From Myxococcota bacterium (lineage in GTDB: Bacteria > Myxococcota_A > UBA9160 > UBA6930): 64,000 bases of DNA. The notes under the pieces were generated by a model. It did no database searches and was not told the DNA's origin. It saw only the letters and a program-made list of their open reading frames with translations. The position numbers were made by a program, and so were the translations under genes. Positions 18,477 through 39,576 of the stretch are shown here, piece after piece. The stretch lies in contig OZ245002.1 in the NCBI GenBank assembly GCA_965223415.1, positions 4,096,001 through 4,160,000 of the forward strand, in the 5' to 3' direction. Position 1 is the stretch's first letter. Each line of letters begins with the position of its first letter.

Positions 18477-19252
18477 GCCGCCCCGACACGGCCCGGCGCC
18501 GCGCTCGCGCCCCGGTCCTCGGCCTGTTGCTGCTCGCCGGCTGCCGCACCCTCGGCGTGCCCGAGGGCGACGCCATCGCGACCGACGCGCCGGAGGTGCG
18601 CGCGGCCCTGGCCGATCTCGCCGCTCGCAGCGGCGCGCACCAGAGCCTTCGCGGCAGCGCCCGCGTCTCCCTCGAGGGGGCGCGGGGCTCGAGCTTCGCC
18701 CGCCACCTGGTGGTCCTGGAGCGGCCGGCGCGCATCCGGCTCGAGGTGATGGGCCTGGTCGGCCAGCGCGTGGCGGTGCTCGCCACCGACGGCGAGCGCT
18801 TCGATCTCTTCCGCGCCGAGACCGGCCAGGTCGAGAGCGGCGTCGTCCATCCCGGGCTGCTGGGGGAGGTGGCGGGGGTGCCGCTGGCCCCGGAGGAGCT
18901 GGTGGCGCTGCTGCTCGGCGGCCTGGCGGTTCCCGGAGAGGCGCCCCAGGAGGCCCGGCGCGGCGCCGACGGCCGGCTGGCCCTCGCCTGGCCGACCCTG
19001 CGCGCCGTCCTCGACGCGGAGGGCCGGCTCCGAGCGCTCCAGCTCCGGGACGCGGCCGGCGGCGAGCTGGTCGACGTGGCCTACGCCGATCACCGCCCCG
19101 CCGGCACGGGCTCCTTCGCCCACCAGGTCGAGCTGGACTTCGGCAGCCGCGGCCTGCGCGCCGAGGTGGAATTCCGACAGGTCGAGCTCGATCCGGTGCT
19201 CCCGGAAGGGCTGTTCCGCCTCGAGCTTGTATCCTCGTCGCCCGGGGGGTGA
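18473..19252 (+). CDS. Lipoprotein, LolB/DUF4292-like (LolA/B-type fold)
   Basis: Lipobox LLAGC; ERPARIRLEVMG motif; beta-rich; directly follows the TPR gene as in TPR-lolB pairs. Confidence 0.6.
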   Translation: MSRPDTARRRARAPVLGLLLLAGCRTLGVPEGDAIATDAPEVRAALADLAARSGAHQSLRGSARVSLEGARGSSFARHLVVLERPARIRLEVMGLVGQRVAVLATDGERFDLFRAETGQVESGVVHPGLLGEVAGVPLAPEELVALLLGGLAVPGEAPQEARRGADGRLALAWPTLRAVLDAEGRLRALQLRDAAGGELVDVAYADHRPAGTGSFAHQVELDFGSRGLRAEVEFRQVELDPVLPEGLFRLELVSSSPGG

Positions 19253-19253
19253 G

Positions 19254-21245
19254 ATGCGTCAGGGGGGATGGTTCCAGGCCCTGCTCGCGGCCGTGCTGGT
19301 CGTGAACACCGCGCTCCTGCTGGTGCTCGTGCTCCAGCAGGACAACCGGGAAGAGCGGATGATCCGCCAGTCCGCCCAGTTCCGGGAGCTGGCGGAGAGC
19401 ACCGATCGCGTGCGCGGGGAGCTGCGCAAGCTGACCCGGGCGATCGGGGCGGGGGACCTGTCCGGGCTGCCACGCGACGGCGGGGAGGGGACGTCTTCCG
19501 ACCGCACGTGGCTACATCCGGAGGTTCCGAACTTCCTGGAGCCCCACGACTTCGAGGTCGTGCCCGTGTCGGCGGAGAACACCGACGGGGAGCTCACACT
19601 CTTCTTCTCGCCCAGCGATCCCAAGGGCTTCAACAGCCTGATCGAGAACGCGGCGGACCTGTCCTTCATCGAGTCGCTCGTGTCTGAGACCCTCGCCAGT
19701 CGGATGTCCTTCACGGATCCGGACCGCTGGTACGGGGAGCTCGCAGAGCGGGTCGAGGTGACGGACGATGGCAAGACCTTCACGCTCTACCTCAAGCCCG
19801 GTGTGCGCTGGCATCGGCCGGGCGGAGTCGATCTGACGGATCCGCGCTACGCGTGGTTGGATCGCGATCACGAGGTGACGGCTCACGACGTGGCCTTCGT
19901 GCTCCGCATGATCAAGGACCCGCAGGTCCAGAACGGCTTCATCAAGAGCTACTACGCCGACCTCGAGAGCTGGAAGGTGATCGATGACCATACGCTCGAG
20001 GTGCGCTGGTCGAAGCGGATCTTCACTGCCCTGGCTTCGACGCTCGGGCTCGGGCCGGCTCCGGAGTTCCTCTATGCCTACGACGAAGAGGGCAACCGCT
20101 TCCCGGATGAGACGCTCGGGCTGAACCTCAACCAGCACTGGTACAACAACAAGGGCATCGTCGGGACCGGGCCCTATCGCTTCATGTCCTACGAGCCCGG
20201 TGAGCGCATCGTCATGGAGCGCAACGAGGACTACCACGGTGAGCTGCCGGCGGTTCGGCGTATCGTCTTCGAGATCGTCGCCGACGCGAACGTGCAGTTC
20301 CTGAAGCTCCGCTCGCACCAGCACGACTTCGGCTCCCTCAGACCCTCCGAGTATCGGGACTTCGTGAAGCCCTGGGAGGACGATCCGAGCAAGCCCCGAC
20401 CCGCCGACAATCCGTTCGTCGGTCCGGGCATGGCCAACGACCGGCGCTCCACGCCCGGCTACTTCTACATCGGCTGGAACGCCGACAAGCCGATCTTCGC
20501 CGACGCACGCGTGCGCAAGGCCATGACCCACGCCTTCGATCGACGGCGCCTGGTCGAGAACGTCTTCGTCGGGCTCGGCCAGGTGGCCGCCGGCCCCTAC
20601 CTCGCCGATTCGCCCTACGCGGATCCCTCGATCCGCCCGTGGCCCTTCGACCTCGTGCGCGCCCGCGAGCTCCTGGCCGAGGCGGGTTGGACGGACACCG
20701 ACGAAGACGGCCTGGTCGATCGAGACGTCGACGGAGACGGCGCCAGGGAGCCCTTCGAGTTCACCCTCTTGATCTACGCCTCGTCGAAGGAGATGGACTC
20801 CGTCGCCAACGTCTTGAAGGAGGACCTCCTCAAGGCCGGCGTACGCATGAAGATCGACAAGGCCGAATGGAGCCTCATGCAGAAGCGCATGGAGGAGCGC
20901 GACTTCGACGCCTTCACCGGCGGCTGGGCGATGGGCTGGGACGTCGACCTCTTCCAGATCTGGCATTCGAGCCAGGCCGATCTCCCCAAGGCCTCCAACA
21001 TGATCGGATTCCGCAATCCCGAGGCTGACGTGATCATCGAGGAGCTTCGCGAGACCTTCGACACCGAGGCCCGCGTTGCCCTTGCCCGGCGCTTTCACCG
21101 CATCGTGCACGAAGAGCAGCCCTATAGCTTCTTCTACGTGCGCGAGCGCTACTACACCTGGTGGGACGAGGTTCGCCGCGTGGTCTTTCCGAAGGTCCGT
21201 CCACTGGTCCGGCCGATGGCCTGGTGGGTCGCACCCGAGGTCTGA
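19254..21245 (+). CDS. Peptide ABC transporter substrate-binding protein (family 5) with N-terminal anchor and coiled coil
   Basis: LAERVEV..DGKTFTLYLKPGVRWH, VTAHDVAF, GTGPYRF, FADARVRKAM, ARELLAEAGW. Confidence 0.9.
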   Translation: MRQGGWFQALLAAVLVVNTALLLVLVLQQDNREERMIRQSAQFRELAESTDRVRGELRKLTRAIGAGDLSGLPRDGGEGTSSDRTWLHPEVPNFLEPHDFEVVPVSAENTDGELTLFFSPSDPKGFNSLIENAADLSFIESLVSETLASRMSFTDPDRWYGELAERVEVTDDGKTFTLYLKPGVRWHRPGGVDLTDPRYAWLDRDHEVTAHDVAFVLRMIKDPQVQNGFIKSYYADLESWKVIDDHTLEVRWSKRIFTALASTLGLGPAPEFLYAYDEEGNRFPDETLGLNLNQHWYNNKGIVGTGPYRFMSYEPGERIVMERNEDYHGELPAVRRIVFEIVADANVQFLKLRSHQHDFGSLRPSEYRDFVKPWEDDPSKPRPADNPFVGPGMANDRRSTPGYFYIGWNADKPIFADARVRKAMTHAFDRRRLVENVFVGLGQVAAGPYLADSPYADPSIRPWPFDLVRARELLAEAGWTDTDEDGLVDRDVDGDGAREPFEFTLLIYASSKEMDSVANVLKEDLLKAGVRMKIDKAEWSLMQKRMEERDFDAFTGGWAMGWDVDLFQIWHSSQADLPKASNMIGFRNPEADVIIEELRETFDTEARVALARRFHRIVHEEQPYSFFYVRERYYTWWDEVRRVVFPKVRPLVRPMAWWVAPEV

Positions 21246-21251
21246 CAGGCG

Positions 21252-22700
21252 TTGCGCAGCTACATCGCCAAGCGCCTCCTGCTGATGATCCCGACCTTCT
21301 TCGGGATCTCCCTCGTGGTGTTCGTGGTGATGAACCTCGCTCCGGGGCATCCGGGCGGCACCCAGCTGGCGGCGGACCTGGCGGCGAGCGTGCGCGGCGC
21401 CGACACCCAGGAGTCCCACCGCATCTTCCGCGAGCAGTTCGGCCTGGATCGGCCGGTCCTCTTCAACACCTACATCTGGCTGGAGCGCGACGAGGTCGAG
21501 GCGGCACTGCGGGACCTGGCCGGCCACGAAGGGGCGACCCCCGCCGAGCGGGTGCGTGCCCAGGAGCGCATCGAAGACTGGGGGCGCTGGGCCGTTCCCG
21601 ACCTCGTGGCGGTGATGCGGGAGACGGCCGATCCGCTGATCCGCGATCTCGCGGTGTACGGCCTGCGCCTGGCCGCGAGGCGCCCCCTCGTCGATCCCTT
21701 CGCGAAAGGCCCCTCACCGGAGGTGCGCGCGGAGAACCAGCGCCGCAACGCGGAGAACGAGCGGATCCGGGGAATGCGCTATGCCCTGGACGCCCCGGAG
21801 GAGGCGAAGCAAGCGGTCGTCGCGGAGTGGTCGGCGTGGTTCGACGAGGTGCGCGGCCGGTTCGAGCTCGGCAACGCCGAGCGTGTTCGCGTCTTCTTCC
21901 TCGAGACCCGCTTCGCCCGGTACTGGGCCAACCTCCTGAAGCTCGACTTCGGCGTTTCGCTGGTCACGAAGGAGCCGGTCTTCACCACGTTGATGGAGAA
22001 GCTCCGCTACTCCCTCTCCCTCTCGCTGACCTCGCTGCTGCTCGGCTACCTGATCTCGCTCCCGATCGGCATCCACTCGGCCGTGTACAAGGACTCCTTC
22101 GCCGACCGCACGACCACCGTGACGCTCTTCATGCTCTATTCGCTGCCGAGCTTCTTCGTCGGGACGCTGCTGCTCTTCTGGTTCTCCGAAGGCTCGACGG
22201 TGTCGTGGCTGCGCTGGTTCCCGATCGGTGGGTGGCGCTCGCCGGGAGCCGACGAGATGACGAGCCTGGCGCAGATCCGGGACGTCACGTGGCACCTGGT
22301 GCTGCCCGTGGCGTGCATGACCTACGGCAGCTTCGCGGCCCTCTCGCGCTATATGCGCACCGGGCTCCTGGGCGTGATCCACTCGGACTACGTGCGCACG
22401 GCGCGGGCGAAGGGCCTGCCGGAGCACCAGGTGATCTTCACCCACGCGGTGCGCAACGGGCTCCTGCCGGTGATCACCCTGCTGGCCGGGCTGCTGCCGG
22501 CCATCCTCGGTGGCTCGGTGATCGTCGAGGTGATCTTCGACATCCCCGGTATGGGCCGCTGGCTGATCGAGTCGATCTACCAGCGGGACTACAACGTCAT
22601 CATGTCCGTACAGCTCCTCTCCACGCTGCTGGTGCTGTTCGGCATCCTGCTCTCGGATCTCGGCTACGCGCTGGTCGATCCGCGGATCCGGTACTCATGA
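21252..22700 (+). CDS. Peptide ABC permease (OppB-like) with large extracytoplasmic insert
   Basis: YIAKRLLLMIPT, DFGVS, DYVRTARAKGL, GGSVIVEVIF, RDY, DPRIR; TTG start. Confidence 0.9.
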   Translation: MRSYIAKRLLLMIPTFFGISLVVFVVMNLAPGHPGGTQLAADLAASVRGADTQESHRIFREQFGLDRPVLFNTYIWLERDEVEAALRDLAGHEGATPAERVRAQERIEDWGRWAVPDLVAVMRETADPLIRDLAVYGLRLAARRPLVDPFAKGPSPEVRAENQRRNAENERIRGMRYALDAPEEAKQAVVAEWSAWFDEVRGRFELGNAERVRVFFLETRFARYWANLLKLDFGVSLVTKEPVFTTLMEKLRYSLSLSLTSLLLGYLISLPIGIHSAVYKDSFADRTTTVTLFMLYSLPSFFVGTLLLFWFSEGSTVSWLRWFPIGGWRSPGADEMTSLAQIRDVTWHLVLPVACMTYGSFAALSRYMRTGLLGVIHSDYVRTARAKGLPEHQVIFTHAVRNGLLPVITLLAGLLPAILGGSVIVEVIFDIPGMGRWLIESIYQRDYNVIMSVQLLSTLLVLFGILLSDLGYALVDPRIRYS

Positions 22701-23911
22701 GCCGCCAGCCGAGCGATCGCATCAGCTACTGGGCCGTCGTCCGAAACCAGTTCAAGAAGAACCGGCCCGCGGTGTGGGGCCTCTGGTGTGCGGTCGGGCT
22801 CTTCGTGCTGGCGACCGGGGCGCCGCTCCTCGCCCTCGACCAGCCCTTCTTCTGGAGCGCGCGCGGTGAGACCTCCTTTCCGCTATTCGCGGCGCTCTTC
22901 AACCGGCTCCAGTTCGAGAACGGCGTCGACATCTTCTTCAACCTGCTCCTCGTCCTCTCGCCCCTCTACGCGGGCTTCGTCTTCTGGCGCCGGCGCCGGG
23001 GCGGCTTGCGGCTGCGGGCGGCCCTGGGCCTCTTGGCCTTCCACCTGCTGGCGACGCTCCTGGTGGTGCCGGAGAGCTGGCTCGGGGTGGCGAACCCCCT
23101 CCACCGGGACGCGCCCATCGTCGACTACCGGGGCCAGGAGGCGGAGCTTCGCGCCGCCGGCGAGGACGTGACGGCGCTCTTCCCGCCGCGCCGCATCCAC
23201 TACCGCGAGACGAACCCGGAACGCAGCGTGCAGGCTCCTGGGGCGGCCTTCTGGCTCGGCACCGACCTGGAGGGGCGCGACGTGCTCGTGCGCATGCTCT
23301 ACGGCACGCGCATCTCCCTCACGATCGGTGTGGTGGCGGTGGCCATCTACGTGCTGATCGGCATCGTGCTCGGAGCCCTGGCCGGCTACTTCGGCGGCTG
23401 GATGGACGTGGTGGTCTCGCGGCTGATCGAGGTGATGATCTGCATCCCGAGCTTCTTCCTCATCCTCACCCTCGTCGCGCTGGTGCAGGACCGCTCCATC
23501 TTCCACGTGATGGTCATCATCGGCGTCACGAGCTGGACCGGCGTGGCGCGGCTGGTCCGCGCCGAGTTCCTGCAGCAGCGCGAGCTCGAGTACGCCCTGG
23601 CCGCTCGCGCCCTCGGGCTGCCGCGCTGGCGGGTGATCTTCCGCCACATCCTTCCCAACGCGATGGGGCCGGTGCTCGTCTCGGCCACCTTCGGCGTGGC
23701 CTCGGCGATCCTGATCGAGTCCGGCCTCGCCTTCCTCGGCCTGGGCGATCTCTCGGTGCCGAGCTGGGGCGAGACCCTCAACGCAGGGCGGCTCGAGATG
23801 AAGCTGTGGCTGATCCTGGCGCCGGGCCTCGCGATCTTCTTCGTGGTGAGCGTCTTCAACCTGGTGGGGGAGGGCCTGCGCGACGCCCTCGACCCGAAGC
23901 TCCGGACCTGA
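22697..23911 (+). CDS. Peptide ABC permease (OppC-like)
   Basis: [39 protein letters not shown]. Confidence 0.92.
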
Positions 23912-23913
23912 CG

Positions 23914-24884
<971 letters not shown>

Positions 24885-24888
<4 letters not shown>

Positions 24889-26348
24889 GCCGCGACGCGA
24901 CGCCGCTGCTCGAGGTCTCGGGCCTGGTGAAGTACTACCCGGTCACCGCGGGCGTGTTCTCCCGGGAGGTCGGGCGGGTGCGGGCCGTGGACGGCGTCTC
25001 CTTCGGCATCGCGCCGGGCGAGACCCTCGGTCTCGTGGGCGAGTCCGGCTGCGGCAAGACCACCGTCGGGCGCACGCTCCTCCGACTCGAAGAGCCCACC
25101 GCCGGCCGCGTGTGCTTCGAAGGCGAGGACCTTGCCGCGCTTCCCCGCGCCGAGCTGCGCGCCGTGCGGCGCTCGCTGCAGATGGTGTTCCAGGACCCGA
25201 TGAGCTCGCTGAACCCGCGCATGACGGTGCGGGACATCATCGGCGAGCCGCTGCGGGTGCACCGCCTGGCCAAGGGCGAGGCCCTCGACGCCCGGGTCGT
25301 CGAGCTGCTCGAGAAGGTCGGCTTGTCCGGCGCCTGGCGGAACCGCTACCCGCACGAGTTCTCCGGCGGCCAGCGCCAGCGCATCGGCGTGGCGCGGGCG
25401 CTGGCCCTGGGGCCGAAGCTGATCGTTTGCGACGAGGCGGTGAGCGCCCTCGACGTCTCCGTGCAGGCCCAGGTCCTGAATCTGCTGATCGACCTGCGGG
25501 CGGAGCTCGGCCTCTCCTACCTCTTCATCTCCCACGACTTGTCGGTGGTGCGGCACATCTCGGACCGCATCGCCGTGATGTATCTGGGGCAGATCGTGGA
25601 GATCGCGTCGGCGGCGCGGCTGTTCGACGACGCGGTGCACCCCTACACCCGGGCGCTGCTCTCCGCGATCCCCGTGCCGGACCCGCGCCGCCAGGTCGAG
25701 CGCATCGTGCTCGAGGGCGACGTGCCGAGCCCGATGCATCCGCCGCCGGGCTGCCGCTTCCACACCCGCTGCCCGGCCGTCATGGACCGCTGTCGCCGCG
25801 ACGTCCCGCCGGCGGTGGAGCTGCCCGACGGCCACGTGGTGAGCTGCTTCCTGGCGGACGCAGCGCCCGCGGACGGCGACTGGCGCCGGGCTACCGCCGA
25901 GCGCCGCCAGGCGGCCGAGGCCGCCCACGCCGAGTCGCGGCGGGTGGAGGCGACCGAGGAGGGGCCGCTCCGGGCGCAGGCCTCCCTCGGCGTGGAGCCC
26001 GAGCCGCCGCCGCCTACCTGGCTCACACGCCTGGTCCCGGCGGCTCTTGCGCTCGCGGCCCTCGCGCTCCTGATCGCCGCCTGGCCGGGAACCCGCGCGA
26101 CCCGGGCCCGGGAGGAGCACGCCGGCCTCGCCCGCGAGATCCACGCCTTCGCCGACGCCACCGGCGCCTGGCCCGAGCGACTCGGCGATCTCGGCTGGCG
26201 TCTCTACGAGGTGTTCGACGACGGCGAGCCCGTCGATCCCTGGGGCCGGCGCTGGGACTACTCGGCGGGGGAGGGTGGCTTCCGCCTGCGCAGCGCGGGG
26301 CCCGACGGAGCCCCCGGCAGCGACGACGACGTGGGCGGCGCGGGGTGA
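24885..26348 (+). CDS. oppF: Peptide ABC ATP-binding protein (OppF-like) with C-terminal TM helix and GspG-like domain
   Basis: [29 protein letters not shown]; then a TM helix and [28 protein letters not shown]. Confidence 0.85.
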
Positions 26349-28324
26349 GGCCCGCCGTCGGCCTGCTGGCGTTGCCGCTCCTGGCGCTGCTCGGCATCGG
26401 CCTCACCTTCCGTGCCTCCCTCCAGGACCGCGCCGACTTCACCTTCGTGAACGGCACCGAGCCCACGACCCTGGATCCGGGCCTGATGACGGGGCAGCCC
26501 GAAGGCCGCATCGGCTGGGCCGTCTTCGAGGGGCTCACGCGACGCGATCCGGCGAGCCTGCGTCCGGTGCCGGGCGTCGCCCAGCGCTGGGACATCTCTC
26601 CGGACGGGCGCACCTACGTCTTTCACCTGCGAGCGGACGCGCGTTGGAGCGACGGGCGCCCCGTCACGGCCCACGACTTCGCCTACGCCTGGCGGCGTCT
26701 CCAGCTCCCGGAGCTCGGCAGCGAGTACGCCTACCTGCTCCACGGTGTCCGGGGCGCCGAGGCCCTGAACCGCTATGAGGCCCAGGCCGAGGCGCTACGG
26801 GGGCCGGTGCGCGCCGCTCTCGAAGCCCTGTCTTCGGAGGCGACCCTGCCCCCGGCCTGGGCGGACTTCGTCGGCCGACACGAGCTGGTGTCGACGGTGC
26901 GGGGCACGCGGGATCCCGTCCTCCTCGCCGGCCTGCGAGCGCCGCCGGCGGATCGCTCGGCCTTCCTGGCCGCCCTCACGAGGGAGGCCGATCGCCGCAG
27001 CGCCGAAGCGTCGCACGCCCGCGATCACTTCGGCCGCGACCTGGGCGTCTACGCCCGTGACGATCGCACCCTGGTGGTCGAGCTGGTGGCGGCGATCCCC
27101 TACTTCCTCGAGCTCACCGCCTTCTACGCCTCGTTCCCGGTCCCGCGCTGGGTCGTCGAGGTTCCCGGCAACGAGAGCGACTGGTTCCTGCCCGGGAAGA
27201 TCGTGTCGAACGGCGCCTTCGAGCTCGAGGCCTGGCGGATCGGCGACCGCGTCCGTCTGCGGCGCAGCGAGACCTACTGGGATCGCGCCAACGTGCCGTC
27301 GCGGACGATCGACGCGCTGCCCCTCGAGAACGTCACGACCGCGCTCAACCTCTACCTCTCCGGCGACGTGGACTGGATCCCCCGCTACCCGAGCGATCTG
27401 GTCGACGCACTGCGGGAGCGCCCGGACCACTACGACCACGCGGGCTTCATCACCTACTACTACCGGATCAACACCCGGCGCCCGCCCCTGGACGAAGCAA
27501 AGGTGCGCCTGGCCCTGGCCCTGGCCGTCGACCGGAAGGTCATCGTCGAGGAGGTGCTTCGCCTCGGCCAGCGGCCCGCCCGCCACATCGTGCCGCCGGG
27601 CGTTCCGGGCTACGAGCCGCCGCCCAGCGCCCTGGGCTTCGATCCCGCCCGGGCCCGGGCGCTGCTGGCAGAGGCCGGCTTCCCCGGCGGCGAGGGCTTC
27701 CCTGAGATCGGCATCCTCTACAACACCCTCGAGAGCCACAAGAAGATCGCCGAGCTGATCGCCGACCAGCTCGGTCGCCACCTGGGCATCTCGGTCAAGC
27801 CCTACAACCAGGAGTGGCAGTCCTATCTCGCGACGATGCGGTCCGGCGAGTACGACCTCGCCCGGGCCGGCTGGATCGGCGACTACCTCGACCCCAACAC
27901 CTTCCTCGACCTGTGGGTGACGAACGGCGGCAACAACCAGACCGGCTGGAGCGACGCCGGCTACGACCGCCTGATCGCCGCCGCCGGCGACGTCGACCGC
28001 TACGCCCGCGAGCCCTTCTTCGAGGGCCTCGCCGAGCCGGAGCGGGCGCGGGCCGCCCTGGCCCGGGCGCGGGAGGCCACCGACGTGCAGAGCCGCCGCC
28101 GGGAGCTCGCGGCCCTGCGCCTCCAGCTCCTGCGGGAGGCCGAGCGCATCCTCGTGGAGCGCGAGGTGCCCGTCCTCCCCATCTACTTCTACGTCGTCTC
28201 GGGCATGGTGCGCCCCGAGGTGGAGGGCTTCTACAGCGAGCTGCTCCAGCCCGACGGTCGCCGCCTGCCGAACCTCCAGGATCTCCATCCCCTGCGCTCG
28301 ATCCGCGTGCGGGGGCCCGGGTGA
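26345..28324 (+). CDS. oppA: Peptide ABC substrate-binding protein (OppA-like)
   Basis: [53 protein letters not shown]. Confidence 0.9.
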
Positions 28325-29436
28325 TCTCCGCCCTGCTGGCCGCCGGAGCCCTCCTCGCGATCGCGTCGATCGCGTTCCTGCCCCACGCAGTGACGCGCAT
28401 CCTGGGCGCGTCGCTGCTCGCCGGGCTGGTCTTCGTCTTCCTGCGTCACCTCACCGGCGACGCGGCGGCCGCGCTGGGCTGCGCGGCCCTGGCGGCTGCG
28501 GCCTGGCGCTGGCTTCCCGCCGCCGTGCTGCGGCGGGTCTCCTTCATGATTCCCTCGCTGGTGCTCCTGATCGGCGTCACCACTTGGCTCATGTACCTGG
28601 CGCCGGGCAATCCCTTCGCCCAGGAGAAGGCGATCGCGCCCCAGGTGGAGGCGGCGCTTCGGGAGCAGTACGGCGTGCCCGAGACGCCGCTCGCCTTCTT
28701 CGGCGTCTACATGCAGCGCCTCCTGGGCGAGGGCTCCCTGGGGCCCGCTCTCAAGGTGAAGGGTCGCAGTGTGCTGGACCTGCTGCTCCCGGCCCTGCCG
28801 GTGAGCCTCGGCCTGGGTGGGCTCGCGCTCTTCCTGGCCGTCGCCCTCGGCGTGGCGCTCGGTGTGCGCGCCGGCACGCGGCCGAACTCCCTCGCGGACC
28901 ACGCGAGCATGGGCCTCGCCCTGGTCGGCATCTCCCTGCCGAACTTCGTGATCGGTGCCGGGCTCATGATCGTGCTCGCCCTCGGCCTGGGCTGGCTGCC
29001 GGTCGCCGGCTGGGGCGGCTTCCGCCACGTCTGGATGCCCGCCATCACCCTGGCGCTGCCCCATGCCGCCACCATCGCGCGACTGGCCCGCAGCGGAACC
29101 TTGGAGGTGATGCAGGAGGACTGGATCCGCACCGCGCGGGCGAAGGGGCTCGCCGAGCGCCACGTCGTGTCCCGCCACGCGCTGCGCGTCGCCGTGCTGC
29201 CGGTGGTGTCCTACCTCGGACCGGCGGCCGCCGGCATCCTCACCGGCTCCTTCGTGGTGGAGACCCTGTTCGGCATCCCCGGCATGGGCCAGTGGTTCGT
29301 GAAGGGCGCCATCAACCGCGACTACTCGATCGTGCTCGGCACGGCGCTCTTCTACTGCGGCTTCATCACGCTCTTCAACCTGGCCGTCGACCTGGCCCTG
29401 GCCTGGCTCGACCCGCGGGCGCGGGACGCCACGTGA
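28321..29436 (+). CDS. oppB: Peptide ABC permease (OppB-like) with extra N-terminal TM segments
   Basis: APGNPF, SLPNFV, DWIRTARAKGL, TGSFVVETLFGIPGMG, NRDY. Confidence 0.9.
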   Translation: MISALLAAGALLAIASIAFLPHAVTRILGASLLAGLVFVFLRHLTGDAAAALGCAALAAAAWRWLPAAVLRRVSFMIPSLVLLIGVTTWLMYLAPGNPFAQEKAIAPQVEAALREQYGVPETPLAFFGVYMQRLLGEGSLGPALKVKGRSVLDLLLPALPVSLGLGGLALFLAVALGVALGVRAGTRPNSLADHASMGLALVGISLPNFVIGAGLMIVLALGLGWLPVAGWGGFRHVWMPAITLALPHAATIARLARSGTLEVMQEDWIRTARAKGLAERHVVSRHALRVAVLPVVSYLGPAAAGILTGSFVVETLFGIPGMGQWFVKGAINRDYSIVLGTALFYCGFITLFNLAVDLALAWLDPRARDAT

Positions 29437-30308
29437 GCGCGCCTCTGATCGAGACGGCCGGCCCCTGGGTGCGCGCCTTCCGGCGGCTGCGGCGACACCG
29501 CGCCGCCATGGCCGGAGCCGCGATCCTCGCCTTCGTGCTCTTCGCCTGCTTCGTGCTGCCGTGGCTGCTCGGTCTCGACCCGAGCGCCACCGCGCCCGAG
29601 CTGCGTCATCAGCCGCCGTCCTGGCGGCACTGGTTCGGAACCGACGCCCTGGGCCGCGATCACCTGGCCCGCACGCTCATGGGCGGGCGCGTGTCGCTGC
29701 TCGTCGGCCTCGCCGCCACCGCCGCGTCGGTTACCCTGGGCGTCGCCTACGGCGCGGTGGCCGGCTTCTACGGCGGTCGCGTCGACGAGGCGATGATGCG
29801 CATCGTCGATTTCTTCTACGGCATCCCGTACATGTTCCTCGTCATCCTGGTGATGCTGATGTTCTCGGAGACGGCGCGAGGCGAGGCGCTGCCCGTCTTC
29901 CTGGCACTCGGCCTCGTGCAGTGGCTTACCATGGCGCGCATCGTGCGGGGCCAGGTGCTCACCCTGCGCGATCGCGACTTCGTCCTCGCGGCGCGGGTGC
30001 TCGGCGCCGCCGATGGTCGCATCCTGCTGCGCCACGTGCTCCCGAACGTGATGGGGCCGGTGGTGGTCTACGCCACCCTCACGGTGCCGGCGGTGATCCT
30101 GCTGGAGTCCTTCCTCTCCTTCCTCGGGCTGGGGGTGGAACTCTCCTGGGGCCAGCTCGTGGCCGAAGGCGTGGCAGTGGTGAACCCGATCGAGTCTCCC
30201 TGGTGGCTGCTCGCCTGGCCCGCGGCGTTCCTGGCGGCCACCCTTTTCGCCCTGAACTTCCTGGGTGACGGGTTGCGGGACGCATTCGACCCGAAGGGCG
30301 CTCCCTGA
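29433..30308 (+). CDS. oppC: Peptide ABC permease (OppC-like)
   Basis: HWFGTDALGRD, GGRVSL, AARVLG, ESFLSFLGLG, GDGLRDAFDP. Confidence 0.92.
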   Translation: MSAPLIETAGPWVRAFRRLRRHRAAMAGAAILAFVLFACFVLPWLLGLDPSATAPELRHQPPSWRHWFGTDALGRDHLARTLMGGRVSLLVGLAATAASVTLGVAYGAVAGFYGGRVDEAMMRIVDFFYGIPYMFLVILVMLMFSETARGEALPVFLALGLVQWLTMARIVRGQVLTLRDRDFVLAARVLGAADGRILLRHVLPNVMGPVVVYATLTVPAVILLESFLSFLGLGVELSWGQLVAEGVAVVNPIESPWWLLAWPAAFLAATLFALNFLGDGLRDAFDPKGAP

Positions 30309-30402
30309 AGCGGGCGTCGGGGGGCGAATCCCCCGGGCGCCGAGGCGCCTTCAGCTCCCGGTCGGCTCCACCGATGCAGAACGCCGGGGGGCTGTCTCGA
30401 CC

Positions 30403-31113
30403 ATGCAGAGAATTGGAGAGGTCCTCCTCGCCGCTGGACTGATCAGCGAGACCCAGCTCACGGCCGCGCTCGGCGAGCAGGCCCGCTGGGGCAACCGACT
30501 CGGCGAGACGCTCGTCCAGCTCGGCTTCCTCGCCGAGCGCGACCTGATCCGGGTGCTCTCGGAGCGCTTCGGCCACCAGGGAATCGATCTCGCGGGCCGC
30601 CAGATTCATCCCGACGTCGTCGCCACCCTGCCGGCGGAGATCGCCTCGAAGTACGGGTGCCTGCCGGTGGCCCGGGAGCGGCGCGCGACGAGCGACGATC
30701 TCTACCTGGCCATGGAAGACCCGTCGAATCTCGTCGCCGTCGACGACGTGAGCTTTCGGACCGGCTGCACCGTCCACCCGCTGCTCGCAGGGCCCGTCCA
30801 GCTGCGCATGGCCATCGCCGCGTGCTACGAGAGCGGGCCGCTCGAGGGGCCGGCCCGGCTCGAGTTCGCGAGCGAGCCTGCGGCGGAGCCCGACCGCGCC
30901 TTCGGGGCCGAAGCCCTGTCCCAGGAGCGCTGGCTCGATGACATCGTCGAGCAGCTCGACGGGCCCGGTCGGGCGTCGGACGGGGCTCGCGAGGGCGACG
31001 CTGGCCGGGTTCCGACCCGGAAGATCCTGCAGGCCCTGACCCGGCTGCTGATCGCCAAGGGCGTCCTCACCCGCGAGGAGCTGATGGCCGAGGTGAAGCG
31101 GCTGGCGGACTAA
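30403..31113 (+). CDS. MshEN/T2SSE_N domain protein without an ATPase domain
   Basis: RIGEVLLAAGLISETQLTAALGEQ..RLGETLVQLGFL tandem motif; LYLAMEDP; no Walker A. Confidence 0.82.
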   Translation: MQRIGEVLLAAGLISETQLTAALGEQARWGNRLGETLVQLGFLAERDLIRVLSERFGHQGIDLAGRQIHPDVVATLPAEIASKYGCLPVARERRATSDDLYLAMEDPSNLVAVDDVSFRTGCTVHPLLAGPVQLRMAIAACYESGPLEGPARLEFASEPAAEPDRAFGAEALSQERWLDDIVEQLDGPGRASDGAREGDAGRVPTRKILQALTRLLIAKGVLTREELMAEVKRLAD

Positions 31114-34304: not shown

Positions 34305-34991
34305 ATGGCGCGCTCCTTACCTGCTGCTCCTTCGCACGCCTCTTCGAACGAGGTCGGCGAGACCACACCCAAGCCGAAGGGTGAGAAGCGAGACCGCATC
34401 CTCGAGGCCGCCATCGTGGTGTTCGCCCGCAAGGGCTTCCACAAGGCGAGGGTCTCAGACATCTCCGCGGAGGCGGAGATCGCCTACGGCCTCGTCTATC
34501 ACTACTTCAAGAACAAGGACGAGATCCTCGCCACGATCTTCGAGGAGCGCTGGCACGGCTTCCTCGATGCGGTCCACGCCATCGGCCGCGGGCCCGGAAC
34601 GCTGCGCAACCAGCTGGTGTCCATCACCACGCTCGTCCTGAACGCGTTCCGTCTGCGACCGGAGTGGGTGAAGGTGCTCGTCCTGGAGATCCAGCGTTCC
34701 AGCCGCTTCGCGGAGCCCGCCCAGCAGCAGGCGGTCGCCGCGCTGTTCGGCGCCTTCGAGGAGGTGCTGCGCGGAGGGCAGGAGCGGGGCGAGCTGCGCA
34801 GCGACCTGAACCTGTCGGTGGCCGCGACGCTCTTCCTCGGCGCCATCGACCTGGTGATCACGAGCTTCGTGATCGGCGTCGCCGAGGTGCCCGAAGGGGA
34901 AGCGGCCCAGCGCGCGTTCTACCTGGAGACCGCCCATCAGATCGTGGACATCTTCCTGCGCGGCGGCGCAGGGGTGGAGGGAGAAGCTTGA
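34305..34991 (+). CDS. TetR family transcriptional regulator
   Basis: RILEAAIVVFARKGF..ISAEAEIAYGLVYHYFKNKDEIL. Confidence 0.92.
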   Translation: MARSLPAAPSHASSNEVGETTPKPKGEKRDRILEAAIVVFARKGFHKARVSDISAEAEIAYGLVYHYFKNKDEILATIFEERWHGFLDAVHAIGRGPGTLRNQLVSITTLVLNAFRLRPEWVKVLVLEIQRSSRFAEPAQQQAVAALFGAFEEVLRGGQERGELRSDLNLSVAATLFLGAIDLVITSFVIGVAEVPEGEAAQRAFYLETAHQIVDIFLRGGAGVEGEA

Positions 34992-35722
34992 TCGAGGCCG
35001 ACGGCATCACCAAGCGTTACGGAGACTTCGTCGCCGTCGACGGGGTCTCCTTCACCGCCGGGGCCGGGGAGGTGATCGGCTTCCTCGGCCCGAACGGCGC
35101 CGGCAAGACGACGACGATGCGCATCCTCACCGGCTTCCTGCCGGCGACGGACGGCACGGCGCGCATCGCCGGCCATGACATCTTCGACGAGGCGCTCGAG
35201 GCGCGCCGAGCCATCGGCTACCTGCCCGAGACGCCGCCGCTGTATCCCGAGATGGACGTGACCGGCTACCTCACCTACGTCGCCAAGCTCAAGGATGTGC
35301 CCCGGGCCGAGCGGAAGGCCGCGGTGGAGAGCGCCACCGAGCGCTGCGGCCTGTCGGACGTCCACCGGCGGGTGATCGGCTCGCTCTCGAAGGGCTACCG
35401 GCAGCGGGTCGGCATCGCCCAGGCCATCGTCCACGACCCGAAGGTGCTGATCCTGGACGAGCCCACCGTCGGTCTCGATCCGATCCAGATCCGCGAGATC
35501 CGCCACCTGATCGCGGACCTGGCGGATCCGGAGAAGGCCGCCCACACGATCGTGCTCTCGACCCACATCCTGGCGGAGGTCGAGGCCATCTGCCGGCGGG
35601 TGGTCCTGATCCACGACGGCCGGAAGGTGCTCGACCAGAGCATGGAGGAGCTGCGCCAGGCCGGCGAAGCGCTCGAGGACGTGTTCGCGCGGCTCACCCT
35701 CCGCGAAGAGGAGGCCGCATGA
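34988..35722 (+). CDS. ABC ATP-binding protein (GldA-like)
   Basis: GPNGAGKTT, GYLPETPPLY, LSKGYRQRVG, LDEPTVGLDP; TTG start. Confidence 0.9.
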   Translation: MIEADGITKRYGDFVAVDGVSFTAGAGEVIGFLGPNGAGKTTTMRILTGFLPATDGTARIAGHDIFDEALEARRAIGYLPETPPLYPEMDVTGYLTYVAKLKDVPRAERKAAVESATERCGLSDVHRRVIGSLSKGYRQRVGIAQAIVHDPKVLILDEPTVGLDPIQIREIRHLIADLADPEKAAHTIVLSTHILAEVEAICRRVVLIHDGRKVLDQSMEELRQAGEALEDVFARLTLREEEAA

Positions 35723-36540
35723 GGCACGTCGGCGCCATCGCAGGGCGCGAGCTGCGCTCGCTCTTCGTCTCCCCCGTGGCCTACGCGGTCCTCACCCTGT
35801 TCGCCGTGCTGGCGGGATTCTTCTTCCTGCTCTCGGTGCAGGGCTTCCGCGAGACCGTGAACTACTACCAGCAGATCGGGCAGTTCGAGGTGCTGCGGGA
35901 GGTCAACCTGAACACCCAGCTGATCGGTCCCTTCGTCCAGGTGATGTGGATCGTCTTCCTGTTCCTGATCCCCGGCATCACCATGGGCCTCTTCACCTCG
36001 GAGAAGACCCAGGGGACCCAGGAGCTCCTGATGACGAGCCCCATCACGATGTGGGAGCTGGTGATCGGCAAGTTCCTGGCGGCGGCGGCCTTCGTGACCC
36101 TGCTGATCGCCATGATGGGCCTCCTGCCGTCGATGCTCTTCATCGAGGTCGGCAGCTTCGACCTGGCGGACCCGGATCCGGAAGGCCTGCAGATGGTCGC
36201 GGGGCTCCTCGGGCTCTGGCTGCTCGGCCTCACCTACGCGGCGGTCGGCACCTTCGCGTCGTCGGTCACCCGCAACCAGCTCGTCGCCTTCTTCCTCGCC
36301 CTGGCGCTGCTGCTGATCCTGTGGCTGCTCTCGGTGGTGGCGGACCTCGGCGTGGCCGAGGGCGCGGCGGGCACGGCCACGTCCGTGTCCGGGGTGCTGA
36401 CCTGGCTCTCCACCTCGGACCACTTCGACAAGCTGGCGCGAGGCCTGGTAGACACCCGGGACCTCGCCTACTTCGCCTTCATGATCGCGGCCTTCCTGAT
36501 CGCGACGAAGACCGCGGTCGAATCCGTGAGGTGGCGCTGA
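35719..36540 (+). CDS. ABC-2 permease (GldF-like)
   Basis: RELRSLFVSPVAY, EKTQGTQELLMTSP, RGLVDTRDLAYF. Confidence 0.88.
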   Translation: MRHVGAIAGRELRSLFVSPVAYAVLTLFAVLAGFFFLLSVQGFRETVNYYQQIGQFEVLREVNLNTQLIGPFVQVMWIVFLFLIPGITMGLFTSEKTQGTQELLMTSPITMWELVIGKFLAAAAFVTLLIAMMGLLPSMLFIEVGSFDLADPDPEGLQMVAGLLGLWLLGLTYAAVGTFASSVTRNQLVAFFLALALLLILWLLSVVADLGVAEGAAGTATSVSGVLTWLSTSDHFDKLARGLVDTRDLAYFAFMIAAFLIATKTAVESVRWR

Positions 36541-38141
36541 TGAAGCCCTGGGCAAGCCTGTTGATGGCGCTGGGCGGCGTCCTCATCCTGTTCGCCGTCC
36601 TGTCGTTCCTGGTGCAGCTCCTCTCGGGCCCCGTGCTGCTGTGGCAGGAGCTCGTGTGGAGCATCGGCAACCTGGTCGTCGGCGTCGGTCTCCTGGCCTT
36701 CGCCCTGTTCTCCAACGCGGACGCCTACCGCGAGCGGCTCCAGACCGGCGAGGCCCGGCGGGCCAGCAAGTACGGGACCAGCGCGATCGCGAGCGCCGTG
36801 CTCGGGATCGCGCTCCTCGGTCTGCTGGCCTTCCTCTCGACCCGCTACCACACCCACTGGGACTGGACCGTGGCCCAGGCCCACACGCTCTCGGGCCAGA
36901 CCACGGGTCTCCTCGAAGACCTGGAGGGCGAGATCTCGGTGGTGGGGGTCTACTCGCCGATGGCCGCGGTGCCCGCCAAAGAGCTGCTCGAGCGGTACAC
37001 CTTCGTGTCGGACAAGCTGAAGGTGGAATGGCTGGACCCGGAGCGGCAGCCCGGCCGCCTGCGCGACCTGGGGATCGCGCCGGAGCGCCTCCAGGCCGGG
37101 CTCCTCCACGTGACGATCGGGGAAGAATCGGTCGAGGTCCGCGAGCTCACCGAGGAGGCGCTGACCAACGCCATCGTGAAGCTCACCCGGCGGGACCAGA
37201 AGAAGGTCTACTTCGTCGTCGGCCACAACGAGCGGATCACGGAGGGCGAGGGCGCCGACGAAGCGACGGGCTACGCCTTCGCTGCCGAAGCCCTCGTCAA
37301 CGAGAACTACCAGGTCGAGACGATCCTGCTGGCCCAGACCGGCGAGGTTCCTGCCGACGCGGACGTGGTGGTGCTTGCCGGGCCTACGCGGCCTCTCCTG
37401 GAGCCCGAGCACGCGGCCCTGCGCGCCTACGCCGAGGCGGGCGGCGCGCTCCTCGTGCTGCTCGATCCCCGCGCGAACACCGACCTGGCGGCGCTCGTCG
37501 CCGAGTGGGGCGTCAGGGTCGGCGAGGACGTGGTGGTCGACCTGGTGGGCGGCATGGTCGGGACCCCGACCACCCCCTTCGCGAAGGACTTCGGCCCCCA
37601 TCCGATCACCGACGAGCTGCGCGGCTTCACCGTCTACGAGTTCGCGCGCAGCGTGACGCCGACACCGGAAGCTGCCGGCGCCTTCCAATCCCTGGTGCGA
37701 ACCGGCGAGGACTCCTGGTCCGAGGTGGACCTCGCCCGCCTGGAGCAGAAGGGCGAGGTGGGCTTCGACCCGGAGGACACCCGGGGTCCGGTCACCCTCG
37801 CCGTGGCGGGGACCCTGAGCCTCGCGGAAGTCGACGCCACGGAGGAGGGCGACCCGACCGACCCGGCCCGCATCGTGGTGGTCGGCGACGCGGACTTCGC
37901 CTCGAATCAACTGATCGGTGCGTACCTCAACCGGGACTTCTTCCTCAACACGGTGAACTGGCTGCTCGGCGACGTCGAGTCGATCTCGATTCGCCCGAAG
38001 CAGGGCGTGGCGAGCCGCCTGCAGCTCACGACCGAGGATTTCCTGGATCTGCGCTACGTTTCGCTCTTCGTGCTGCCCGAGACGATCGCGGTGCTGGGGG
38101 TGATCGCCTGGTGGCGCAGGCGCCGCGCACCGGGGCGATGA
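36540..38141 (+). CDS. GldG-like ABC auxiliary component
   Basis: WDWT..HTLSGQT, VYFVVGHNE, VVLAGP, RIVVVGDADF, NRDFFLNTVNWL. Confidence 0.85.
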   Translation: MKPWASLLMALGGVLILFAVLSFLVQLLSGPVLLWQELVWSIGNLVVGVGLLAFALFSNADAYRERLQTGEARRASKYGTSAIASAVLGIALLGLLAFLSTRYHTHWDWTVAQAHTLSGQTTGLLEDLEGEISVVGVYSPMAAVPAKELLERYTFVSDKLKVEWLDPERQPGRLRDLGIAPERLQAGLLHVTIGEESVEVRELTEEALTNAIVKLTRRDQKKVYFVVGHNERITEGEGADEATGYAFAAEALVNENYQVETILLAQTGEVPADADVVVLAGPTRPLLEPEHAALRAYAEAGGALLVLLDPRANTDLAALVAEWGVRVGEDVVVDLVGGMVGTPTTPFAKDFGPHPITDELRGFTVYEFARSVTPTPEAAGAFQSLVRTGEDSWSEVDLARLEQKGEVGFDPEDTRGPVTLAVAGTLSLAEVDATEEGDPTDPARIVVVGDADFASNQLIGAYLNRDFFLNTVNWLLGDVESISIRPKQGVASRLQLTTEDFLDLRYVSLFVLPETIAVLGVIAWWRRRRAPGR

Positions 38142-38151
38142 GGGCGCGACG

Positions 38152-39576
38152 GTGAGCCCGAGGACTACGTTGCTCCTGGCCGTGGCGGTCGCCGCCCTCG
38201 GTGCCTTCGTCTGGTTTTGGGAGGTGGAGGGTGCCGCCGACCGTGCCGCCGCCGAGCAGACCGCCAAGGAGGTCTTCCCGGACCTCACCCCCGAAGCCCT
38301 GACCGCGCTGGTCGTCCGCAGCGATGAGGGCGACGAGGTCCGCCTCGAGCGCGATGGCGGCTGGCGGCTGCGTGCGCCGGTCGACGCCCCGGCGGACCCG
38401 ATGACCGCCGACGCCCTCGCCGCCGCCGTGGCAGACCTGGCCACCGAGAGCACCTTCGACGATCCCGAGCCCCGGGAGAGCTACGGCCTGACCGGAGAGC
38501 CGCGGGTGCGGGCGGAGGCCGGCGAGCGCCACGTGGCGCTGTGGCTCGGCGACGCGACACCCACCGGCACCAACACCTACGTGGCCGCCGAGGGCGACGA
38601 GCGCGTCTTTACCGTCGCGACCTACCGGACGAACGCCCTGCGCAAGAGCCTCGGCGACCTGCGCGACGCGCGCATCCTCTCCTTCGATCGGGAGGCGGTG
38701 ACCGATGTCGAGGTGACCTGGAAGGGCGGTGGCGTCGCCGTCGCGAAGGGCGAGGAGGCGTGGCGGGTTCGCAAGCCCCTCGACGCCGCTGCGGACGAAG
38801 GGACGATCTCGGGCCTGCTGTCGGATCTCTCCTACCTCCGGGCGGAGGACTACGTGGACGAGCCGGCGGCGGAGCAGCGCACCGCCCTCGGGTCGCCCGC
38901 CTATCAGGTGACGCTGCGCGGCGCCGAGGACGCGGTGCTGGCGGAGCTCCGGATCGCATTCGCCGGTGGGGACGAAGGCGAGGGCACGCGGCGCCTCGTG
39001 CAGGGCCGGGAGGGCTTCCTCTACGAGATCGCCGAGGGCCGCCTCGACGACCTGCCGCGCACGGTCACGGCCTTCCGCTTCAAGGAGCTGTCGAGCTTCC
39101 CGGTCAACGACGCGGCGCGCTTCGAGCTGGCCTTCCAGGGCGAGGGCGAGGAGCTCCTCGTCCAGGCCGAGCAGACCGCGGAGGGCAGCTGGACCAGCAC
39201 GCCCGAGCCGCTGGCGCCGGGCAAGGCGAGCCGCCTGCTGTCGGAGCTCTCGAGCCTCGAGGCCGCGGACATTGCCGCCGAGAGCATGGGACCGGACGAG
39301 CTCGCCGGCATCGGCCTCGCGCCGCCCCGGGTGACGGTGCGCGTACTGCCGGAGGAGGGCGACACCGCCCTGGCGAAGCTGCACCTCGGCCGCCTCGAGC
39401 CGGGCCGGGGGATCGCCGCCCAACGTCCGGACGACCCCATCGTCTACTGGCTCCCCGAGGCTCTCGCCGAGCACCTGCCCGTGAGCCTCGAGGCCTGGCG
39501 CAACCGCTTCCTGGCGGAGGAGGCGGAGACGGACGAGGCTCCCGAAGAGGAAGAGGGAGCGGACGAGGAGGAGTAG
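38152..39576 (+). CDS. DUF4340-like membrane-anchored protein
   Basis: N-terminal TM; repeated W..P..AD/L.A..YGL..P units; standard position after gldG-like genes. Confidence 0.75.
   Translation: MSPRTTLLLAVAVAALGAFVWFWEVEGAADRAAAEQTAKEVFPDLTPEALTALVVRSDEGDEVRLERDGGWRLRAPVDAPADPMTADALAAAVADLATESTFDDPEPRESYGLTGEPRVRAEAGERHVALWLGDATPTGTNTYVAAEGDERVFTVATYRTNALRKSLGDLRDARILSFDREAVTDVEVTWKGGGVAVAKGEEAWRVRKPLDAAADEGTISGLLSDLSYLRAEDYVDEPAAEQRTALGSPAYQVTLRGAEDAVLAELRIAFAGGDEGEGTRRLVQGREGFLYEIAEGRLDDLPRTVTAFRFKELSSFPVNDAARFELAFQGEGEELLVQAEQTAEGSWTSTPEPLAPGKASRLLSELSSLEAADIAAESMGPDELAGIGLAPPRVTVRVLPEEGDTALAKLHLGRLEPGRGIAAQRPDDPIVYWLPEALAEHLPVSLEAWRNRFLAEEAETDEAPEEEEGADEEE

Follow-up and report, generated by a model that had tools for sequence, protein, structure and literature searches.

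The ATPases of ATP-binding cassette (ABC) importers are soluble cytoplasmic subunits. Some of them carry regulatory domains at their C-termini, e.g. MalK, MetN (C2), ModC and OpuAA (CBS); these domains lie in the cytoplasm and respond to ligands or regulators found there. To our knowledge, all known accessory domains of ABC-importer ATPases are cytoplasmic. In this work we describe a gene that departs from this picture. It lies in a stretch of 64,000 nucleotides from the genome of a Myxococcota bacterium (assembly GCA_965223415.1, contig OZ245002.1, positions 4,096,001 to 4,160,000), which we call the window. It encodes an OppF/DppF-type ATPase that continues in frame through a linker into what we call the tail: a predicted transmembrane (TM) helix and a head resembling GspG, the major pseudopilin of type II secretion systems (T2SS). 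The accessory domain sits at the C-terminus of the ATPase, as in the examples above, but unlike those it is predicted to cross the membrane. We found no description of an architecture of OppF, TM helix and GspG-like domain in the literature that was available to us, in part only in some cases and with subscription journals not covered; a preliminary description of the gene, made from the letters alone, likewise knew of no example.

Each half of the protein has a well-described counterpart. For the ATPase this is the Escherichia coli importer DppBCDF. According to the accessible part of PMC12136057, both of its ATPases carry a [4Fe-4S] cluster on four cysteines (C293, C299, C306 and C323 in DppF), and DppF is positioned under DppC. 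The fusion protein shares with OppF/DppF the ABC_tran and oligo_HPY domains and the four-cysteine motif, and its operon likewise encodes OppB/OppC permeases, OppD and binding proteins of family 5. The known OppF/DppF proteins are soluble and end soon after the last of these cysteines, whereas the fusion protein runs on for 165 residues, by prediction through the membrane and into the periplasm. For the tail the counterparts are GspG, PulG, EpsG and XcpT (PF08334, TIGR01710), with which it has in common a hydrophobic helix, helix alpha1-C, a short helix, a small sheet, a DPWG..Y motif and an Asp-rich C-terminal loop. Unlike GspG, the tail has no leader, no G/FxxxE site (the slash marks the cleavage point) and no Glu5, and it is preceded by 380 residues of ATPase and linker. 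It also has an invariant LGWRL of its own and a shorter alpha-beta loop, and it is encoded in an opp rather than a gsp operon.

The fusion is a single, genuine gene, and its product is an ABC-importer ATPase that is predicted to be tethered to the membrane. Its open reading frame starts with a GTG that overlaps the stop codon of the OppD gene upstream, and its TGA stop overlaps the GTG start (26345) of the gene for the binding protein SBP2, in the form GTGA. The source genome, which is complete and in a single contig, has a G+C content of about 72%. The G+C content of third codon positions stays at 0.90-1.00 in a single phase in all 180-nt segments of 24850-26379, and the phase shifts only past 26290-26380; this constancy across the junction shows that the tail is coding in the OppF frame. 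In the whole protein Pfam finds ABC_tran at residues 36-186 (PF00005, E 4.7e-32), oligo_HPY at 238-303 (PF08352, E 2.8e-19) and T2SSG at 447-481, the last with 18.9 bits, which rises to 21.5 bits when the tail is scanned alone (cut-off 21). Two relatives pass this cut-off more clearly, P0030 with 38.9 bits and P0039 with 32.3 bits. The region 25600-26600 is identical to the assembly in Logan contigs from four sequencing runs, three of which hold it in one piece while the fourth covers it with two contigs (25600-25769 and 25745-26600). These runs come from at most two samples of one study, possibly the very source of this assembly.

The preliminary description had read this frame as an OppF joined through a TM helix to a GspG-like domain, and codon phase, domain matches and conserved fusions in relatives all support it. 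Its landmarks were placed correctly: the OppF end, SCFLA, corresponds to residues 320-324 (25842-25856), and the hydrophobic helix and motifs lie where it put them. The T2SSG match to the tail that it had expected from Pfam was obtained at a marginal score, no indel appeared at the junction, where it had thought of a lost stop or frameshift, and the architecture of ABC_tran, oligo_HPY and T2SSG that it proposed to look for elsewhere is present in P0005, P0030, P0039 and P0049.

In both sequence and predicted fold the tail is homologous to the major pseudopilin GspG. When a profile of seven tails was compared with solved structures, eight of the ten matches at E<=1 were GspG-type pseudopilins, the best at 2.4e-5. 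Aligned by hhalign, residues 27-108 of the tail match residues 49-149 of the GspG from the same genome with a probability of 90%, an E-value of 1.5e-6 and 21% identity, and the alpha-beta loop of the tail is about 15 residues shorter. An AlphaFold2 model made from the tail alignment has a mean predicted local distance difference test score (pLDDT) of 85.3, with helices at 2-22 and 24-50, a W-P-G kink between them, a further helix at 57-67 and three strands. The structural alignment program VIA-align places this model on EpsG (3gn9_A) with Z 10.9 and a root-mean-square deviation of 1.8 A over 83 residues. Its top seven entries are all major pseudopilins (Z 8.5-10.9), and type IV pilins reach Z 7.6 at most. 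The pilin fold, in whose absence the preliminary description would have failed, is thus predicted. Foldseek ranks major pseudopilins in all of its first 15 places, at E-values from 4e-3 to 0.24 and none at E<=1e-3, and T2SSG is found in 29 of the 30 ESM-Atlas clusters nearest to the tail. The score against the GspG equivalog model TIGR01710 is 21.1 bits, compared to a cut-off of 88.85. The tail corresponds to a whole pseudopilin from about the third residue on, minus the leader and the cleavage site.

The alignment of the seven tails has 29 invariant positions, including the aspartates that correspond to calcium ligands and the LGWRL that is specific to this subfamily; DPWG, W..Y, S.GPDG and DD are present in all seven fusion proteins. 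In PulG/OutG, calcium is bound by the side chains of D117 and D125 (possibly D124), by residue 122 and by two backbone carbonyls (PMC13081927, accessible part). D474, D481 and D482 of the fusion protein are invariant and have the same +7/+8 spacing as D117, D124 and D125. By analogy, the loop of the tail probably binds calcium, and the aspartates to which the preliminary description had drawn attention are those expected of a GspG-type site.

By its defining features, the tail is a GspG-fold domain and not a pseudopilin. The model for prepilin cleavage and methylation, TIGR02532, has no match in the tail but does match the GspG of the same genome (26.7 bits). The G/FxxxE motif is absent from all 14 fused proteins, and there is no Glu (Glu5) within the TM helix of the fusion protein. 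Lacking both the prepilin-peptidase site and Glu5, the head is predicted to stay attached, uncut and unpolymerized, just as the preliminary description had expected from the missing cleavage site. Hydropathy places one hydrophobic segment after the ATPase in the genus of the window and in locus L017. In P0005, P0039, P0049, L018, L019, L021 and L044 there are three, two in a hydrophobic hairpin of 35-38 residues and one in the last helix, with an Arg/Lys-rich loop between them; this basic loop resembles a prepilin leader. We regard the one-helix form of the window as derived. With an odd number of crossings, one or three, after a cytoplasmic ATPase, the head should be periplasmic in both forms, on the side of the membrane that the preliminary description had assigned to it. 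Further pointers in this direction are the probable calcium site and the signal-peptide-like N-termini, seen by eye, of the T2SSG proteins P0007 and P0008.

On sequence, the ATPase belongs to the OppF/DppF (PepT) family, without a substrate assignment. Its Walker A is GESGCGKT and its signature FSGGQ, and a Walker B is present as well. Against NCBIfam the core scores 405.7 bits with the dipeptide ABC ATP-binding protein model NF008453 (cut-off 408), and it stays below the equivalog cut-offs of OppF (NF011659, 393 vs 540 bits) and DppF (NF043071, 356 vs 660 bits). The four cysteines, invariant among the fusion proteins, are spaced 6/7/18, compared to 6/7/17 in E. coli DppF, and by this likeness they probably bind a [4Fe-4S] cluster. 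The oligo_HPY region of OppD also has a four-cysteine motif, spaced like the [4Fe-4S] site of E. coli DppD/DppF.

The fused frame is free of stops in all five other genomes of the genus. Within the genus the tail is 48-58% identical, compared to 85-89% for the core, and the linker has a mean identity of 38%. The ratio of nonsynonymous to synonymous substitution rates (dN/dS; 15 pairs, dS about 1) comes to 0.125 in the core and 0.28 in the head, compared to 0.48 in the TM helix and 0.50 in the linker. The head is therefore under purifying selection, although weaker than that on the ATPase.

Taking the genus and more distant relatives together, at least 14 loci, independent of one another, have a continuous fused frame. 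When one genome per species was scanned, ten loci were obtained, nine of them OppF-tail fusions and one (L022) a false match. The nine are from metagenome-assembled genomes titled Deltaproteobacteria, Myxococcales or Polyangiaceae, and in one case Spirochaetales; in one of them (L020) the ATPase part is garbled, apparently by frame errors. A word-based protein search found P0004 and P0005, the latter with precomputed ABC_tran, oligo_HPY and T2SSG annotations. The source annotations of the fusions read 'oligopeptide/dipeptide ABC transporter ATP-binding protein' or 'hypothetical protein'.

A search of 1.84 billion representative proteins with the tail profile returned 4205 matches at E<=1e-3 and 188 at E<=1e-10, of which we examined the best 150. 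According to phmmer, 12 of these 150 have an OppF core, and four more start with an OppF C-terminus; among the 46 that were scanned against Pfam, 12 have oligo_HPY, with or without ABC_tran. The motif L[GREK][WF]R[LT] occurs in 45 of the best 150, and a prepilin N-terminus (GFTL[IV]E) in only two. Two matches, P0052 and P0103, have no T2SSG and belong to unrelated families only; they look spurious. The set also includes non-pilin T2SSG proteins, among them P0007, P0008, P0010 and P0013. Like the fusion, these use the domain without a prepilin N-terminus, and they are presumably extracytoplasmic; unlike the fusion, they have other partners and no ATPase, and most are without LGWRL. Many of the remaining matches hold two to four tandem T2SSG-like domains, in some cases behind apparent signal peptides, and T2SSG is also found fused to Lnb_N (P0072), to alpha-2-macroglobulin domains (P0111) and to HEAT repeats (P0150). 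We found no study of non-pilin T2SSG-domain proteins.

The distribution of the tail was also followed in 401 evenly sampled genomes of the phylum, where adjacency to OppF was checked for the 30 best tail loci. Full-length orthologues of OppB1, the first permease of the operon, were found in 67 of the 401, and strong tail matches beside an OppF core in five (G000, G004, G209, G327 and G411). Further tail matches with long open frames were found in G126, G140, G273 and G369, genomes from which the OppB1-type system is absent. In all seven tail-less orthologues examined, i.e. G027 and six from other families, the OppF end is short or acidic and proline-rich, with no helix or head. Five tail-less OppF proteins (L098-L102, from G046, G202, G380, G057 and G345) have acidic, proline-rich C-terminal extensions of low complexity, 60-240 residues long. 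G027, the closest tail-less relative, has no tail gene at all. In a tree of 26 OppF cores the tail-bearing rows form an unresolved comb, six tail-less rows form one clade (support 95/91), and G027 joins the genus of the window weakly (83/71). The tree may reflect a single gain of the tail, with which it is compatible; a loss in G027 is not demonstrated. The tail is a lineage-specific add-on, conserved in a Myxococcota clade under purifying selection.

Table 1. Coordinates of the fusion gene, its parts and its neighbours (positions in the window).
Feature	Position	Strand	Basis or remarks
Fusion gene: OppF/DppF-type ATPase, linker, TM helix and GspG-like head	24885..26348	+	487 aa
ATPase core, residues 1-325	24885..25859	+	Pfam: ABC_tran 24990-25442, oligo_HPY 25596-25793
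Probable [4Fe-4S] site of the oligo_HPY region: cysteines C290, C296, C303 and C321, all four invariant	25752..25847	+	Alignment of 7 fusion proteins
Linker, residues 326-380	25860..26024	+	Alignment: conserved DW..AT.ERR helix, then an acidic/proline-rich stretch
Single predicted hydrophobic TM helix, about residues 381-402, W-P-G kink at its end	26025..26090	+	Hydropathy; tail model
Predicted GspG-fold head, residues 403-487	26091..26345	+	alpha1-C, short helix with invariant LGWRL, three-stranded sheet, DPWG..W.Y
Putative calcium-binding loop, G472-P-D474-G ... D481-D482	26298..26330	+	Invariant Asp; aligned to the loop of solved GspG
SBP1, family-5 solute-binding protein of system 1, N-terminal TM anchor and helical stalk	19227..21245	+	
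OppB1 permease, 482 aa, helical insertion of about 170 residues between TM1 and the BPD_transp_1 core	21252..22700	+	
OppC1 permease	22697..23911	+	OppC_N and BPD_transp_1
OppD ATPase	23806..24888	+	True start perhaps nearer 23908
SBP2, OppA-like binding protein	26345..28324	+	Start overlaps the stop of the fusion gene
OppB2 (about 28321-29436) and OppC2 (29433-30308), second permease pair	28321..30308	+	

The gene order around the fusion is SBP1, OppB1, OppC1, OppD, OppF-tail, SBP2, OppB2, OppC2 and a small MshEN-domain protein (Table 1). By analogy with DppC and DppF, OppC1 is likely the membrane partner of the fusion ATPase. The insertion in OppB1 falls in what we take to be the region where the 'scoop motif' of E. 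coli DppB contacts the binding protein. By eye, SBP1 begins (19227-19700) with an uncleaved-looking TM anchor and a charged helical stalk of about 100 residues before its family-5 domain. No meaningful Pfam match was obtained for the insertion in OppB1, the loop of OppC1, the stalk of SBP1 or the linker, and HEAT-like repeats, considered for the insertion, were not supported. The MshEN protein (30265-31113, start likely near 30403; NF053729 with 69.9 bits, PF05157) is of the type that binds cyclic di-GMP. Throughout the genus it is the last protein of the operon, and G027 has it too, behind an operon without the tail (39% identity); a link of cyclic di-GMP to peptide uptake is possible. Further downstream, an ABC ATPase, an ABC-2 permease, an unassigned open reading frame of 504 aa and a DUF4340 protein occupy 34664-39576, and a protein with an aspartyl-protease domain follows at 39580-40740.

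The genome has only two oligo_HPY domains, those of OppD and OppF-tail, and these two proteins are also the best matches in this genome to the OppD2 and OppF2 of relatives. A single ATPase pair thus faces two permease pairs, from which we infer that it is shared. Outside the window, 12 tail-bearing loci were examined. In 11 of them SBP2 lies directly 3' of the tail, L018 being the exception, and in 11 a second Opp system is found behind the tail. In the seven tail-less loci (G027 and six others) the order is SBP1-OppB1-OppC1-OppD-OppF, with no second system behind. This association is not independent evidence, because the tail-bearing loci may be one clade. In L017, L019 and L020 an OppD2 comes after OppC2, followed by OppF2 in the first two (the sequence of L020 stops within OppD2). 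L017 and L019 hold the tail together with OppD2/OppF2, so the tail was already there when the second ATPase pair was lost.

What could such a tail do? The explanation that we cautiously prefer, and hold to be somewhat probable, is that it serves as a tethered periplasmic accessory of the transporter, specific to this lineage, and not as a pilus subunit. The ATPase would stay cytoplasmic and sit under OppC1 of the OppB1C1 translocator, as DppF does under DppC. A linker of about 55 residues would lead back to the membrane, which the helix would cross once, or three times in the more distant relatives. The head, stabilized by calcium, would then be exposed on the periplasmic side, next to the permease loops and to a docked, membrane-anchored binding protein. 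There the tail would anchor the subunit and offer a small surface for contact or docking with SBP1, SBP2 or the permease loops, and the invariant LGWRL helix is the candidate for this surface. That the tail might dock binding proteins had also been suggested in the preliminary description.

Several observations weigh against this explanation, or at least against a strong role. Most orthologous systems do without the tail, so it is not needed for the basic transport cycle. G027 and six further loci have a long OppB1 and an anchored SBP1 but no tail, so that neither the OppB1 insertion nor the SBP1 anchor is a tail-specific partner. Of all parts of the operon the tail evolves fastest, as would suit a module under loose constraint. 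The head of G411 (L057) is cut short ahead of the last strand and the calcium loop, and G209 (L044) has a degenerate GPDG..DD loop; some lineages can therefore dispense with the head. In G327 (L043, about 960-1560) the frame of the tail differs from that of the core, with a tandem-repeat linker (ARDEDA-type) between them. Finally, a full-length AlphaFold2 model from the seven-row alignment is poor (pLDDT 54.5, predicted template-modelling score 0.38), with only the head confident. It has a linker helix at 333-355, of low confidence, and is therefore silent on the packing of linker, TM helix and domains.

Some of these points would suit a simpler explanation, that OppF is just held in place by its membrane helix or helices, with the GspG head as a hitch-hiker or a decaying remnant that has no partner. 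We regard this as unlikely, but it is the alternative that survives best. In G411 the hydrophobic segments are, by eye, kept intact where the head is truncated, and both the degenerate loop of G209 and the much faster evolution of the tail than of the core are what one would expect of a remnant. The unrelated disordered extensions of tail-less orthologues indicate that the OppF end tolerates variable appendages, and an anchor would also suit a genome in which one ATPase pair has two permease pairs to serve. On the other hand, the dN/dS of the head lies below those of the TM helix and the linker. The 29 invariant positions, calcium-ligand aspartates and LGWRL among them, have been kept across lineages whose cores are 30-40% different. 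Furthermore, the tail is older than the loss of the second ATPase pair, as L017 and L019 illustrate.

A link to a filament machine, in which helix and head dock at the platform or pseudopilus of a T2SS or type IV pilus (T4P), was raised by the preliminary description. Apart from the pilin-like plan and a distant gsp cluster we found nothing to support it, and we think it improbable, more so than a plain anchor. The full pilin plan has been kept: alpha1-N is hydrophobic and has a Pro kink, and alpha1-C and the GspG head come after it. MshEN is a module otherwise found on T2SS/T4P ATPases, and a protein with this domain stands last in the operon of the genus and of G027; that it also follows the tail-less operon of G027, however, shows that it is not tied to the tail. 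The genome does have a gsp cluster with GspF, a GspG (159 aa, beginning RRRRG/FSLIE) and a further pseudopilin, and this is the only other place in the genome where T2SSG occurs. But it is the sole gsp cluster found and lies about 400 kb away (C1:4.52 Mb), while the tail sits in the opp operon. Glu5 and the cleavage and methylation site, which pilin assembly requires, are absent, and a cytoplasmic N-terminal domain of 40 kDa would block extraction from the membrane. The head has also diverged far from the GspG of its own genome, and the missing 15 or so residues belong to the alpha-beta loop, which in PulG/OutG carries secretion specificity (PMC13081927, accessible part).

Very improbable, in our view, is the production of two proteins, in which the tail is either cut off by a protease or translated from an internal start, and acts on its own as a pseudopilin-like protein. 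The split frames of G327 could be taken as an example of this, and many short library entries consist of a TM segment and head only, including a 73-aa fragment annotated as GspG. These short entries, however, are either on short contigs (P0014, 920 bp) or start inside OppF (P0015, P0034, P0046 and P0100), and a prepilin site is missing from a frame that is continuous in locus after locus. The break in G327 lies in the tandem-repeat linker of a ten-contig assembly, and may be an indel error or a genuine split. The preliminary description had named separate genes in relatives as grounds for doubt; G327 is the only relative in which core and tail are in different frames, and the other fused loci and the lack of any tail gene in G027 speak for the fusion. 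The chance that a lost stop or frameshift in the assembly has joined OppF to a small downstream gene is negligible: long spurious open frames do occur in high-GC genomes, but constant codon phase, conservation of the fusion across genera and indel-free contigs from four runs contradict it.

If the tail is indeed a tethered accessory of the transporter, a more specific role can be imagined, which we offer tentatively and consider unlikely as it stands. The head may touch the anchored SBP1, or the translationally coupled SBP2 of the second system next to it, and so serve in docking or sensing, by which substrate delivery in the periplasm would be wired directly to the ATPase, and in this genus it might let a single OppD/OppF pair serve two translocators.

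A docking or sensing accessory of this kind would be new among importers and derived from a domesticated secretion-pilus subunit. The rule that importer ATPases are soluble would not hold for an ATPase that brings along a membrane anchor and a folded domain in the periplasm, and such an ATPase would provide a direct physical link between both sides of the transporter. More generally, the GspG head lives outside of pili, as a stand-alone and presumably extracytoplasmic module in a large and apparently unstudied set of proteins.

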